Positions 60,292-64,000 of a DNA stretch of 64,000 nt are shown here, one piece after another (the stretch's first letter is position 1; each line of letters starts with the position of its first letter). The translations under genes and the position numbers were made by a program. The DNA comes from Escherichia phage VTCCBPA_211. Under the pieces are notes generated by a model. It made no database searches. It had not been told where the DNA came from and saw only the letters and a list, made by a program, of their open reading frames with translations. The stretch lies in sequence record PP989838.1; one strand, written 5' to 3'.

Positions 60292-61833
60292 TTAGTAACT
60301 CTGATTCCATCTGCTTACGTTTGCCTCATACAGAGAAGCACTTCCGTAGCTAACGTCATGCTTAGAGCGACCACGATGTGTAACAGAGCACGCTGAATAG
60401 CGCATTGCATCCATTAAGTCATCATGTTCTTTAATAATCTTACCAACCTTACGGTGATATCTAGCTTTCTCTTCGAATAGCTTAGCATTAGCGGCTGTGT
60501 TAAAGATTTTAAAGCGTCCACTCATCATTCTTTCTCGGATATCTGTGATTCCCGGTTCTACAAAGAAGTTCTTTTTACCATCCATTCCAATTTTGTTGTA
60601 GAAGGTCTCACTCTGTACGTTAACTCCTGCATTCTTATAGAATTGAGCAACAGATGAACCGCTACCTTTCTCAATATTGTCCGCATCGTGCGGCAGGATG
60701 ACAGGAATCCACTGACCACGACCATTAATAGCTGGAGCATGATACACTGGAGTAAAGCCACCTTCTTTATATGAGTCGTAAACATAGATAGTATCCGTGT
60801 TTGCATCGTAAGCTGTCCAAACAGCAGCAGTCGGGTGATCAATACCAATATCAATTGCACAGACACGTTTCCACGTATCAGGAATTTCGAATGGTTCACA
60901 TTTAATTGTGTCATCCGATACATCATAAATCAAACCACTTCCTAACAATGGCATACCTTTCGAACGCATCTCTAACTGCCACGCTGGAATACCTTCAGTC
61001 ATATCTTTTATGTCTTGGTCAGTGATATGTCCACCTAGGTCTGCATGAGCATCCCACCAAGAAGCATTCTGGAAATATAGAGAACCTGTGTTCTCATCCC
61101 CTTCACCTTTCATAAATTTATCTACCAGTTCAGTTAAGCCGTTCTCTGGTGTAGCTGTAATTGTAACTAGACCTTTAGTTGTGAGTGTACGTGTGACGCA
61201 CTGTGCGAATATAGCCATAGACTCGTATGGATCTTCTTCGTCTAACCAAATGTAGTCAACTGTTGCACCCATCAATGTGTGTTCACCCTGTTGGGTTGAA
61301 CGGAATTCTAATGTACTTAAACCGTCAAACTCTCCTCTTTCGTTTTGATGTTTGATTTGTACGATTTGAAGTTTATTACCATCTCGTTCTATCGTGTCAA
61401 TGACGATAGCATCACGAGGAATGACACCTGTCCCCAATAAGTTTGTATCCTTTCCGATAGGTGTACCAAACAATTCCTTTTGCAATACTTTCCTTGTGGA
61501 ATCCCCTGTAATACCAACTGCCCATGCTAAGATAGGTCTTTTAAATTTATATCCTGTCCACCAAGTTGGGTAGCGACCTGTGACATGACAAGCAAACTCG
61601 TATGCCTCGCTGTAAGATTTACCAACACGGTTCGCTGCACACAAGAATCTAAAGCGATGCTTCAATCCTGCCGCATAAAATTTCTTTTGGAAGTCATACG
61701 CCTTGAAAGACAAAATCTTATTATACTTCCTCCATTGGTCACGCTCTTTCAACATATTCAATAGTGCTTTCTTTTCCTCTACACTAAGATTGTTACCAGT
61801 TAGAGCTTCATAAATTTGTTTATCTAATGACAT
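60292..61833 (-). CDS. terminase large subunit
   Basis: Walker A-like CAANRVGKS, Walker B-like DYIWLDEED, C-terminal nuclease region (AIDIGIDHP); GGAGGA SD. Confidence 0.8.
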   Translation of the reverse strand: MSLDKQIYEALTGNNLSVEEKKALLNMLKERDQWRKYNKILSFKAYDFQKKFYAAGLKHRFRFLCAANRVGKSYSEAYEFACHVTGRYPTWWTGYKFKRPILAWAVGITGDSTRKVLQKELFGTPIGKDTNLLGTGVIPRDAIVIDTIERDGNKLQIVQIKHQNERGEFDGLSTLEFRSTQQGEHTLMGATVDYIWLDEEDPYESMAIFAQCVTRTLTTKGLVTITATPENGLTELVDKFMKGEGDENTGSLYFQNASWWDAHADLGGHITDQDIKDMTEGIPAWQLEMRSKGMPLLGSGLIYDVSDDTIKCEPFEIPDTWKRVCAIDIGIDHPTAAVWTAYDANTDTIYVYDSYKEGGFTPVYHAPAINGRGQWIPVILPHDADNIEKGSGSSVAQFYKNAGVNVQSETFYNKIGMDGKKNFFVEPGITDIRERMMSGRFKIFNTAANAKLFEEKARYHRKVGKIIKEHDDLMDAMRYSACSVTHRGRSKHDVSYGSASLYEANVSRWNQSY

Positions 61834-61994: not shown

Positions 61995-62468
61995 TTAACT
62001 CTCGTCCGCTTCCTCCCCCTTTTCAGCGTCCTCAGAGTTATCTTCTTCTGGAGGCATAACGTCAACACCAAGTGCTCCAGTCAAGAAGTCCTTGATTTGT
62101 GCATTCAATGATTCTTCGTTGATTACATTCTCTTCCTCAATCTTAACTTCAACAGAGGCCGCCTTAGGATATACCAGATCTGCAACTTTTGATGCAGCCT
62201 TGAATCTAAGATCGGGTGGAATATTAGGATCTTCGTAAATTTGAATTAACACTTCATCAGGAGACAAATGACTTGCAGCAACACGGTCCAACATTAATTG
62301 TGTCAGTTTACCTCTACTACCTCTGGGTCGTCCGAATTTATTTCCCTTTTGAAACTTCCCATTGCTTGGGTTCATACCACGGCTTTCGAGTTCTTCCGTT
62401 ACTCCGGGTAATCTTCCTGTAACCTCAGCTACCTGTGCAGGCGTGAGTTCTCCGTTTTCTCCAAACAT
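61995..62468 (-). CDS. probable terminase small subunit
   Basis: Upstream of terL; basic GNKFGRPRGSRGK motif; acidic C-terminus. Confidence 0.45.
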   Translation of the reverse strand: MFGENGELTPAQVAEVTGRLPGVTEELESRGMNPSNGKFQKGNKFGRPRGSRGKLTQLMLDRVAASHLSPDEVLIQIYEDPNIPPDLRFKAASKVADLVYPKAASVEVKIEEENVINEESLNAQIKDFLTGALGVDVMPPEEDNSEDAEKGEEADES

Positions 62469-62498
62469 TTTATACTCCTTCTACATTATCAACAACAC

Positions 62499-62520
62499 AA
62501 AAAGCCTCCCAACGGAGGCA
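62499..62520 (-). terminator. rho-independent terminator (minus strand)
   Basis: GCCTCC-GTTG-GGAGGC hairpin followed by TTTTT on the minus strand. Confidence 0.6.
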
Positions 62521-62524
62521 AACA

Positions 62525-63181
62525 TTACTTACAATCACCAACGGACAGGTTAAACATCTTACCTAGAGCAATCGTCTCACCTTCCCACGGAAGTTCTGCA
62601 CCCTTCTCTTCCTCTAAAAGAATAGAGCCGTCGACCAAAAATTTTTCGTAGTCTCGCAGTGCGTCGTCTACTAACTCACTCTTGTGAATCCACGTAATTG
62701 TTTCTGTACCATCCTCTTCGATTCGAACATCACGATGCCATTCATCTTTGGAGGTAATGTAATCATGGAGCATTTCATATTCAGCTTCTTCAATCATCTC
62801 AATCATTGCACGAGCATAGTCAGGGAGGTGATCATGTTTAGTAGATTCATATTCAACTACTTCTAGATTGGAAGGACACTTACGTTTAACTTCCTTTGCT
62901 ACAGTGAAATAATCTTTCACATCTTTCGCTTCTGTACGAGGAATCAAACCTTCCCATATTTCACGGGTTGAAGGAGCATAACCATACACAGAACCATGAG
63001 CCAGTTGTTTTGCCATCTCAACTCGGGACTTACCTCCAGTAGTTTCATGAACACGATTCAGATAGAGAACATCCTCTGATAAAGGACGGATCGAACCATT
63101 ATAAACAACCTCGCCTTTACATCCCATGTTCTCATAGATTGCATTCAGTGTATTAGTTCCTGTCATATTGTTATTCATCAT
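62525..63181 (-). CDS. hypothetical protein (218 aa)
   Basis: ATG at 63181 with AAGGAGAG SD; the longer track ORF would overlap the upstream gene. Confidence 0.4.
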   Translation of the reverse strand: MMNNNMTGTNTLNAIYENMGCKGEVVYNGSIRPLSEDVLYLNRVHETTGGKSRVEMAKQLAHGSVYGYAPSTREIWEGLIPRTEAKDVKDYFTVAKEVKRKCPSNLEVVEYESTKHDHLPDYARAMIEMIEEAEYEMLHDYITSKDEWHRDVRIEEDGTETITWIHKSELVDDALRDYEKFLVDGSILLEEEKGAELPWEGETIALGKMFNLSVGDCK

Positions 63182-63431
63182 TCTCTCCTTCAGTGTCAGT
63201 GTTATCACTATAACGATAATCTTTAAGTGTCTCAGCCTTGTAGGACACAAAGCATCTCATGTACAACCAGCCCAATGAACTAAGGTCCATCGTAGCATCA
63301 AAATCTTCATCGTCGTCCAAGTCTACCAATCTACCCAAACAACTCAATACTTCTCCTCCTTCTTCAAATACAAATGCACATTTTTCAGTGCGGAAGTAAG
63401 GAATCAACTCTGATAAAAAATCTAGAATCAT
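63171..63431 (-). CDS. hypothetical acidic protein (86 aa)
   Basis: ATG at 63431 with GAGGAG SD. Confidence 0.35.
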   Translation of the reverse strand: MILDFLSELIPYFRTEKCAFVFEEGGEVLSCLGRLVDLDDDEDFDATMDLSSLGWLYMRCFVSYKAETLKDYRYSDNTDTEGENDE

Positions 63432-63463
63432 TTTATATCTCCTCTGATATAAGAGAGTGATCA

Positions 63464-63670
63464 ACCCATAAAGGCGTACTCATCTAAAGGCCCACCCATG
63501 TATGAACCCATGTACGCTGAAGTAGTTCACTACGTTCAAGTAAAGGGCATGTCATAAAGGCACCCCCATAAAGGCTATGTCACGTTAAGGCCTATCCATC
63601 CATGTGCTATGTTTAAGCTTACCACATTTACTACATCTCCAAGTGGACTTATAAAGGGTGTGAACTCTTT
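63464..63670. repeat. cluster of short direct repeats (ATAAAGG-type iteron-like repeats)
   Basis: At least six copies of (C)ATAAAGG(C) plus repeated CCATGTA within about 200 bp of non-coding DNA. Confidence 0.4.
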
Positions 63671-63749
63671 CATCCCCGTAAGCTTTGCGTATCCGATAGT
63701 ACTCATGATCACATTTGAATTGCTTAATGATTAACTTAATTTTCCACAT
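63585..63749 (-). CDS. small zinc-ribbon-like protein (54 aa)
   Basis: CDH...CSKC pattern; overlaps the repeat-rich region, so it may be non-coding. Confidence 0.2.
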   Translation of the reverse strand: MWKIKLIIKQFKCDHEYYRIRKAYGDERVHTLYKSTWRCSKCGKLKHSTWMDRP

Positions 63750-63839
63750 AAGTTCTCTTTCAACCTTATATATAAGAGTTTAAAATTCTGATTTGACCGA
63801 ATGGGGCTAGGCGCTCGCCGCGTGTTTCTCAAAAAGGGG

Positions 63840-64000
63840 GAGTCCTCATTTAAAAAAAGGGTTATTGGCAATGCCTTTACCTTCCCTTTCAACGTTCCAC
63901 CTTTCCCCGTGCCTACTCCCCGTAATTATTCCCCCGTGTATACTACCCAATACATTACCTACCCGTTTATTTAGTTCCCCTTTACTGAGTGAGAGAAAGG
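63840..64000. repeat. pyrimidine-rich repeat tract
   Basis: Repeated CCTTT(C/A)C and CCCCGT(G/A) units in non-coding DNA at the window edge. Confidence 0.3.
63948..63956 (-). promoter_or_regulatory. near-consensus motif TAATGTATT (minus strand)
   Basis: One mismatch; at the head of the minus-strand late arm. Confidence 0.3.

Follow-up and report, generated by a model that had tools for sequence, protein, structure and literature searches.

A conserved direct-repeat array near the left genome end of a Kuravirus-type phage: a possible recognition site for DNA packaging

Positions 63,464 to 64,000 of a DNA stretch from Escherichia phage VTCCBPA_211 (PP989838.1; the window below is this whole stretch, 64,000 nucleotides, read 5' to 3' on one strand) are crowded with short repeats. 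The question is whether the window edge lies at a genome end and, if so, what the repeats do there. A first, sequence-only reading had taken the region to be non-coding and a possible genome terminus, packaging site or regulatory site.

The window end matched about 95 GenBank phage records in megablast and blastn searches, all from Escherichia or Shigella phages of the phiEco32 group (Gordonclarkvirinae, that is, Kuravirus plus Suseptimavirus) and all on the minus strand. Base 64000 aligned to record base 3 in phiEco32, SU10, ES17, IME267, CHD5UKE1 and others, the records used for this alignment being those deposited from the physical left end. Hence, the window shows the left 64 kb of a Kuravirus-type genome as its reverse complement, and the proposed terminus was placed correctly except that the window stops 2 nt before it, the outermost 2 nt of the direct terminal repeat (DTR) lying past the window edge. 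In phiEco32 bases 1-193 are repeated exactly at 77362-77554, and the last 192 nt of the window are identical to that 193-bp repeat at 175 of 193 positions (91%), which sets the inner DTR boundary at 63809. By this homology 63809-64000 is the 193-bp direct terminal repeat already known for the genus. The pyrimidine-rich tract that had been described as following the array is thus the terminal repeat itself, and its CCTTT and CCCCGT repeats are as reported, with three CCCCGT copies and with CCTTT/CCCTTT motifs in 63870-64000. In phiEco32, SU10 and 4E8 more ACGGGG copies are found on the same strand about 300 bp upstream of the right DTR, plus one inside CDS1. No second DTR copy was found within the 64-kb window, the genome being about 77 kb long.

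These ends agree with earlier work on the group. The phiEco32 ends were mapped experimentally and SU10 reads drop sharply at both repeat ends (PMC4281155), DTRs of 192-193 bp were given for 30 phages of the group (PMC9965538), and physical virion-DNA ends have been reported for phiEco32, SU10, Paul and YF01. We found DTRs of 193-250 bp at both ends of SU10, 4E8 and NC-B. All nine left ends compared begin with AGCCTTTC or GGCCT(T/C)TC, even where the DTR interior is divergent, and the NC-B and SU7 DTRs carry TAAAGG-motif copies analogous to those of the window. It is nearly certain that the region has the anatomy of a Kuravirus left end, composed of DTR, promoter-like block, the small gene CDS1 and a repeat array (Table 1). 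Terminus, DTR, promoter block and gene order are already known from phiEco32 and SU10.

Table 1 Features of the left genome end, in window coordinates
Feature	Position	Strand	Remarks
Terminal octamer (AG)CCTTTC, physical left end	63993-64000	-	Carries the array core GCCTTT in array-unit orientation
Left DTR (as reverse complement)	63809-64000		Homology to phiEco32 1-193
TAAAGGG copy in DTR	63978-63984	-	Inverted relative to array; kept at phiEco32 position 19
Three CCCCGT repeats in DTR (ACGGGG on the other strand)	63905-63937	+	Starts 63905, 63918, 63932; spacing 13-14 nt
TAAAGGC copy in DTR	63873-63879	-	Inverted relative to array; kept at phiEco32 position 124
Promoter-like block CGGTCAAATCAGAATTTTAAACTCTTATATATAAGG, just inside DTR, upstream of CDS1	63764-63799	-	Nearly identical in all left ends compared
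CDS1, 54 aa, small zinc-ribbon-like protein	63585-63749	-	C13, H15, C39 and C42 conserved (C-x-H...C-x2-C)
Seventh TAAAGGG copy, inside CDS1 coding sequence	63652-63658	+	Kept in phiEco32, SU10 and Bas91; not in the SU7, NC-B or 4E8 group
Direct-repeat array, unit (Y)CA(yr)T[A/T]AAGG[C/G]NNNNY	63465-63591	+	Two units at 63469 and 63485; tandem block at 63541, 63555, 63569 and 63585
Central element ACCCATGTACGCTGAAG, between the two array parts	63506-63522	+	As ACCC(A/G)TGTACGCTGA in 9 of 11 phages, window included
CDS2, 86 aa, first gene downstream of array	63171-63431	-	PHROG 12698
CDS3, 218 aa	62525-63181	-	'ABC transporter' label from PHROG 12176 only, without Pfam support
Intrinsic terminator (62504-62519), then gp36-type late promoter motif TAATGTAGA (62480-62488)	62480-62519	-	
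CDS4, probable small terminase (TerS)	61995-62468	-	Profile match; position upstream of TerL
TerL	60292-61833		Directly downstream of CDS4

The promoter-like block was listed in SU10 Table S2 as a 'potential sigma-70 promoter' upstream of CDS1, and the 4E8 annotation places a promoter at the equivalent of 63764-63799; in our strict sigma-70 consensus scan the block failed. CDS1 itself had been suspected of being a spurious 54-aa open reading frame. The reading frame is intact in 11 of 11 phages with all four zinc-ligand residues invariant, and its dN/dS is 0.10-0.17 at dS values above 1.4 (this coding sequence is 68-72% identical and its synonymous sites are saturated). There are tblastn hits in 96 records and a match to PHROG 7696 (E 6e-17). 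Given this selection, conservation and family match, we take CDS1 to be a real gene, and the region cannot be called wholly non-coding. The phiEco32 genes gp1-gp3 as annotated are probably wrong.

The array had also been placed immediately upstream of the first late gene on the minus strand. It lies instead between CDS1 and CDS2, both classed as early: the SU10 paper assigns CDS1-3 to the early and CDS4 onwards to the late class (PMC4281155), so that the 'first late gene' is found about 1 kb further in. The motif TAATGTAGA on the minus strand matches the SU10 'late promoter 1480 gttgataatgtagaaggagtataaaatg' and fits the gp36 consensus AATGTA; judged by this match, the terminator followed by TAATGTAGA is the true start of the late operon. 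After CDS4 and TerL come structural genes.

The array fills the 153-nt space from the CDS1 stop codon to the start of CDS2 (63431). On the plus strand TAAAGG begins at 63469, 63485, 63541, 63555, 63569 and 63652, and the variant TTAAGG at 63585. The earlier count of at least six copies of (C)ATAAAGG(C) holds for the core TAAAGG (six copies plus TTAAGG) but not for the longer word, as exact ATAAAGG is present in four copies only, the rest being C/G-TAAAGG. Spacing within the tandem block is 14/14/16 nt, and the final, TTAAGG unit overlaps the CDS1 stop codon. The copy within the CDS1 coding sequence may be coincidental. One 200-bp stretch holds seven T[AT]AAGG[CG] sites on one strand; when the window was simulated 200 times with a first-order Markov model and the densest same-strand cluster per 200 bp was recorded, the maximum was 3 and none of the 200 simulations reached seven. 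The repeat cluster is real and not a product of chance. Counting both strands, 9 of the 23 T[AT]AAGG[CG] sites in the window sit in its last 540 bp, and the remaining 63.4 kb holds 14 sites against 22-29 expected (Markov orders 1-5), a modest depletion of about twofold. The repeated CCATGTA that had been pointed out is indeed present twice (63496 and 63508), the latter copy within the conserved element ACCCRTGTACGCTGA, but over the whole window the word is no commoner than chance predicts. Tandem Repeats Finder did not report the array, which was seen with seed-based repeats and motif scans, because the spacers are too variable for that program.

Comparison with the termini of related phages, one of the checks proposed at the outset, gave the same ends and conserved repeats. 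We compared the window with ten phages from two genera (phiEco32, SU10, Paul, LAMP, Bas91, Bas93, 4E8, NC-B, SU7 and IME267), and the array was present in all 11, in identical place and orientation. The usual order is two CDS2-proximal units, then ACCC(A/G)TGTACGCTGA, then a tandem block of three to five units spaced by 14 or 16 nt, the last of which overlaps the CDS1 stop codon in the relatives as well. The two proximal units adjoin the CDS2 ribosome-binding site in 9 of 11 phages, being absent from LAMP and displaced in phiEco32, and the central element is missing from the left ends of these same two phages. Copy number runs from 4 to 8 and changes by insertion or deletion of whole units of 14 or 16 nt, which rules out a coding function and indicates that the unit rather than the exact sequence is maintained. 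Over 72 units the T-W-A-A-G-G-S core is invariant by definition of the scan; Y-C-A at +11 to +13 is kept in 66 of the 72, and four or five spacer positions vary freely. Within the last two units 19 of 24 nt are invariant in a multiple alignment of all 11 phages although the adjacent synonymous sites are saturated, which argues for selection at the DNA level. The segment 63440-63530, containing the proximal units and the central element, is more variable between relatives. There the window resembles the SU7/IME267/4E8 group and elsewhere the phiEco32/Bas91 group, which suggests that its left end is mosaic. Apart from the DTR copies, no second TWAAGGS cluster was found at the phiEco32 right end or in SU10 from 30 to 77 kb, and from these scans of the phiEco32 and SU10 right ends the array is confined to the left end.

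It could be argued that repeats beside a terminus are a functionless by-product, generated by replication slippage or left as a decayed remnant. Slippage would give the observed variation by whole units, and we know of no function established for the T7 array, nor for those of T3 and SP6. However, the core (as scanned) is unchanged in 72 units of 11 phages, the invariant positions of the last two units stand against neutral sites that are saturated, orientation is strictly kept and the motif is avoided elsewhere. A functionless array is thus extremely improbable.

If the array has a function, it might be exerted in RNA. The predicted CDS1-CDS2-CDS3 transcript includes the array, and CCUUUA/CCUUAA sequences of this early polycistronic mRNA could bind a protein or pair with Shine-Dalgarno sequences and so control translation or stability; the motifs are pyrimidine-rich and complementary to AAAGG-type Shine-Dalgarno-like sequences, and a hairpin that would sequester a Shine-Dalgarno sequence adjoins. 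Yet neither strand of the array folds better than shuffled controls (z -0.13 and -0.98), which eliminates a structured RNA, and no Rfam family matches the array region at E values up to 1. Moreover, the motif also occurs inverted in the DTR, which precedes the predicted promoter, and again at the DNA terminus, and the T7, T3 and SP6 arrays sit between the DTR and the first annotated rightward promoter. We consider an RNA-level element very unlikely.

Several other identities were discarded. The consensus scan gave no sigma-70 promoter in the array. In a gp36 middle/late promoter, a tAATGTAtA element precedes the transcription start by 6-8 nt; CCATGTA and CCATGTG mismatch it, are found only on the plus (wrong) strand and are replaced by CGTGTA in relatives. 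The element ATGTACGCTGAA, examined as a possible feature common to both ends, is near the right end of phiEco32 but at no other right end, and is lacking from the phiEco32 left end; we treated it as chance or rearrangement. An IMG/VR scan with TAAAGGNNNNNNCATAAAGG returned only chance hits among the matches listed, the best two being a collagen-like coding repeat and scattered sites. The units differ by one mismatch from phage tf-type nick sites (TACTRTGMC) with nothing else in support, and PhoB, IHF, CRP and DnaA boxes gave partial matches by eye with the wrong spacing.

A role in replication was considered in two forms, iteron-like sites for an initiator or loading and priming sites for the lagging strand near the left end. 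The direct repeats are in one orientation near a genome end, as iterons might be. On the strand that has its 3' end at the left terminus, several units contain 5'-GTC-3', which forms the core of T7-type primase sites. The phage encodes its own primase/helicase and DNA polymerase. However, the 14-16-nt spacing is out of the helical phase of iterons (about 11 or 22 bp), and the array has an unremarkable GC content (0.43-0.45). An AT-rich stretch (63700-63799, GC 0.27) comes no closer than about 110 bp, where it covers the 5' part of CDS1 and the promoter-like block. The neighboring genes gave no replication-related matches and include no initiator gene. On these grounds we reject origin iterons. 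Conservation falls on TWAAGGS and YCA rather than on GTC, and the right end, which faces the same end-replication problem, has no counterpart. Hence, a replication element is improbable.

The units keep one orientation strictly, combine an invariant core with freely varying spacers, differ in number between phages and occur at a single place near one end; further copies lie in the DTR and at the terminus, and the motif is mildly avoided elsewhere. Together these are the properties expected of a row of binding sites for one protein. A candidate for that protein is encoded about 1 kb downstream. When the CDS4 family profile was searched against 177,635 PDB sequences, the top two were the small terminases of NV1 (E 0.0025) and PaP3 (E 0.047). 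NV1 and PaP3 are Pseudomonas phages. CDS4 also has a weak DUF5681 match. Its AlphaFold model is mediocre (pLDDT 69) and gave no significant fold match in the PDB, so the assignment stands on the marginal profile hit together with gene position. CDS4 is a probable small terminase and, as such, a candidate to bind the array. The PaP3 protein forms a nonamer, has flexible helix-turn-helix domains and recognizes its own end sequence specifically (PMC7672466). The TerL encoded next to CDS4 shares 38-39% identity with Bruynoghevirus TerL and 32% with that of P22. The Grimontviridae, more distant C3 podophages, lack CDS1 and have a different direct-repeat array (ATGACCTCCCATCAA-like) just upstream of a DUF5681 gene, presumably their TerS; their deposited records have no duplicated ends and are colinear permutations.

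We therefore favor, at a probability of about 40% for the mechanism as a whole, a protein-binding array that marks the left end for recognition and packaging. On this view each unit would be a DNA site for the same sequence-specific protein, the phage small terminase being the likeliest candidate, and the array would mark the left genome end within replicative concatemers as the place where terminase assembles, cuts and begins packaging. As inverted copies are present in the DTR and GCCTTT at the terminus, one protein might bridge the array and the cut site. Counting for the packaging link are the PaP3/NV1-type match of CDS4 and the Grimontviridae array upstream of the DUF5681 gene. Counting against it are the promoter and gene (about 220 bp) that separate the array from the DTR, unit spacing that is out of helical phase, units that face the other way from those of T7 relative to the nearest end, the marginal profile hit behind the TerS assignment and the modest degree of motif depletion.

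The array lies inside a transcription unit reported to be early, and to that extent an operator fits equally well. The CDS1 product or a host factor would bind the units cooperatively as an operator or roadblock for the left early operon and tune or shut off CDS2 and CDS3. The array fills the intergenic region between CDS1 and CDS2, with proximal units that reach to within some 10-60 nt of the ribosome-binding site of CDS2 (the pair adjacent to that site being absent from LAMP), and in phiEco32 two units, at positions 645 and 672, stay beside the CDS2 homologue despite rearrangement. CDS1, with its conserved four-ligand zinc motif, always adjoins the array. The genes are classed as early, and a small conserved hairpin (63433-63455) holds the Shine-Dalgarno sequence of CDS2, a hint of regulated expression. 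Against this, the array and its immediate surroundings lack a promoter consensus, which leaves an operator with no obvious target, and neither the motif copies in the DTR and at the terminus nor the depletion elsewhere would be explained. The distant relatives, moreover, keep an array upstream of the DUF5681 (putative TerS) gene without having CDS1. On balance we regard regulation of the left early operon as unlikely, though well short of far-fetched.

The packaging reading can be extended beyond this group: the TWAAGGS array may be the packaging recognition site of DTR podophages with PaP3/P22-type terminases, and the T7, T3 and SP6 arrays may have the same role with lineage-specific cores. 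A ring-shaped small terminase would then bind the units, spaced by 14-16 nt, cooperatively, contact the inverted DTR copies and the copy at the terminus and so fix the position of the concatemer cut. This generalization is a tentative one, and we hold it to be doubtful at present. In papers on SU10, SU7, YF01 and Paul we found no mention of the Kuravirus array, and it is apparently an undescribed member of the class of short-repeat arrays adjacent to DTRs. How concatemers are recognized and cut in phages with short exact DTRs is poorly understood outside T7, and here strong purifying selection acts on a similar array in another lineage, unrelated to that of T7. Kuravirus offers a clean system for the array/terminase question: its host is tractable, about 100 relatives have been sequenced and its probable small terminase is of the PaP3 type. 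By homology the genome ends are now fixed, and the annotation is corrected, for a phage group used in phage-therapy work, and those who engineer Kuravirus phages should be cautious about deleting the 'non-coding' array stretch.

The left terminus of phiEco32, SU10 and other Kuravirus phages does not differ in kind from that of the window. phiEco32 and SU10 share with the window the terminal octamer, the promoter-like block, the order of CDS1-CDS4 and TerL, and the places of the late promoter and terminator. In its proposed function the array would resemble two terminase recognition arrays, the R sites of lambda cosB and the hexamer repeats of P1 pac. Like them, the Kuravirus array is composed of short repeats near a cut site, lies between the genome end and the terminase genes and has copies on both sides of the cut. 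It is unlike them in being 220-340 bp from the inner DTR boundary, in belonging to a genome with DTR ends rather than cohesive or headful ends, and in that terminase binding is only putative. The likeness to plasmid and phage origin iterons consists of direct repeats of single orientation in a non-coding gap, and is offset by the unit spacing and by the lack of an adjoining AT-rich unwinding element and an adjacent initiator gene.

The resemblance to T7-like terminal regions that had been drawn from the sequence is borne out in part. Examined directly, the T7 and T3 left ends have (C)CTAAAG arrays that repeat about every 13 nt, both within the terminal repeat and a short way past it, and the SP6 left end has a CTTAGT array beside its terminal repeat. 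The T7 arrays are said to have been named SRL and SRR by Dunn and Studier in 1983. The Kuravirus array shares with those of T7, T3 and SP6 a core of 6-7 nt, a single orientation, a 12-16-nt period, variable spacers, a location just inside a DTR of 160-230 bp and extra copies within the DTR, and TAAAG is common to Kuravirus (C)ATAAAGG and T7/T3 (C)CTAAAG. The SP6 core differs, which argues for lineage-specific motifs rather than a site for a common host factor. The likeness to T7 has its limits. The Kuravirus array is found at one end only, whereas T7 also has copies left of its right repeat; it does not abut the DTR, as the promoter-like block and CDS1 intervene; its units point towards the nearest end and those of T7 away from it; and Kuravirus relies on a P22/PaP3-type terminase and on host RNA polymerase rather than on a T7-type system.

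The repeat array, a run of direct TWAAGGS repeats between CDS1 (the 54-aa ORF) and CDS2, may be of mixed ancestry. Its proximal segment (63440-63530) matches the SU7/IME267/4E8 group, whereas the rest of the window end (63531-64000) matches the phiEco32/Bas91 group, and most Kuravirus alignments to the window end begin only at query position 92-114. This pattern suggests a recombination junction within the array. The ATGTACGCTGAA element is missing from the left array of phiEco32, and an exact copy lies about 180 bp inside the right direct terminal repeat (DTR) of that phage (L005 2170-2188), inverted relative to its left-end position in other phages. As ATGTACGCTGAA was not found at the other right ends, the phiEco32 copy may be due to chance or rearrangement.

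The GenBank annotation of phiEco32 at 296-744 appears to be wrong. The phi32_1 gene (296-496) is in a different frame from the conserved 54-aa ORF (253-417). The coordinates of phi32_2 and phi32_3 overlap those of the non-coding array, in which the unit indels are not multiples of three. On the other side of the window array, the Shine-Dalgarno sequence of CDS2, GAGGAG, is embedded in a small hairpin, the sequence of which (TCTCCTCTGA..AAGAG) is kept in relatives, and this conservation suggests possible translational control of CDS2.

The hexamer ACGGGG may constitute a second end-associated repeat family. Beyond the window copies, phiEco32 (L005 2043-2082), SU10 and 4E8 carry two or three more, about 300 bp upstream of their right DTR. 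The strand is the same for every copy, and the hexamer is absent from NC-B and SU7. The DTR also contains TAATGTAT, an inward-directed match to the promoter core of the phage sigma factor gp36. This match is present in Paul and, in the form AAATGTAT, in LAMP, but phiEco32 and SU10 have TAATGAAT there.

Features of the window and of the Grimontviridae segments
Feature	Coordinates	Strand	Description
CDS4	61995-62468	-	157 aa, upstream of the large terminase gene
Terminator/promoter pair	62480-62519	-	Intrinsic terminator GCCTCCGTTGGGAGGC plus T-run, directly followed by gp36-type late promoter motif TAATGTAGA
CDS3	62525-63181	-	'ABC transporter' in RefSeq and PHROG 12176
CDS2 Shine-Dalgarno hairpin	63433-63455	-	CUCUCUUAUAUCAGAGGAG
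ACGGGG in CDS1	63674		One copy
ACGGGG in DTR	63905-63937		Three copies; CCCCGT on the window + strand
gp36 core match in DTR	63950-63957	-	TAATGTAT
Grimontviridae repeat clusters	L013 360-455; L012 1269-1545; L014 641-777		ATGACCTCCCATCAA-like

The terminator and the TAATGTAGA promoter motif mark the point, after CDS3 and before CDS4, where the early genes give way to the late ones; the layout is identical to that of SU10 'late promoter 1480'. The CDS3 protein had no Pfam match at E values up to 1, and the name given to it looks unfounded. The CDS4 protein is 'hypothetical' in every annotation. The CDS4 family profile matches the small terminases of NV1 (E 0.0025) and PaP3 (E 0.047) across the oligomerisation core, with the motif DPN...R(L/F)KAA; a fold search gave no significant match. 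Given these profile matches, CDS4 is probably the Kuravirus small terminase.

Repeats also occur in other phages. In Grimontviridae (7-11-like Salmonella phages and Aeromonas phage BUCT695), a ATGACCTCCCATCAA-like 15-18-mer is directly repeated three to four times, at intervals of about 27-60 nt within each cluster, just upstream of a DUF5681 (putative small terminase) gene in records that leave the physical ends undefined; the copies sit in a non-coding region of about 2 kb where other repeats are abundant. In LUZ24 (Bruynoghevirus), the large and small terminases of which are related, a 27-nt repeat (GTTCTATAGGTATACCC...) occurs three times at the right end (L145 3175-3303), on the side of the DTR nearer the terminase genes and 140-270 bp inside it.
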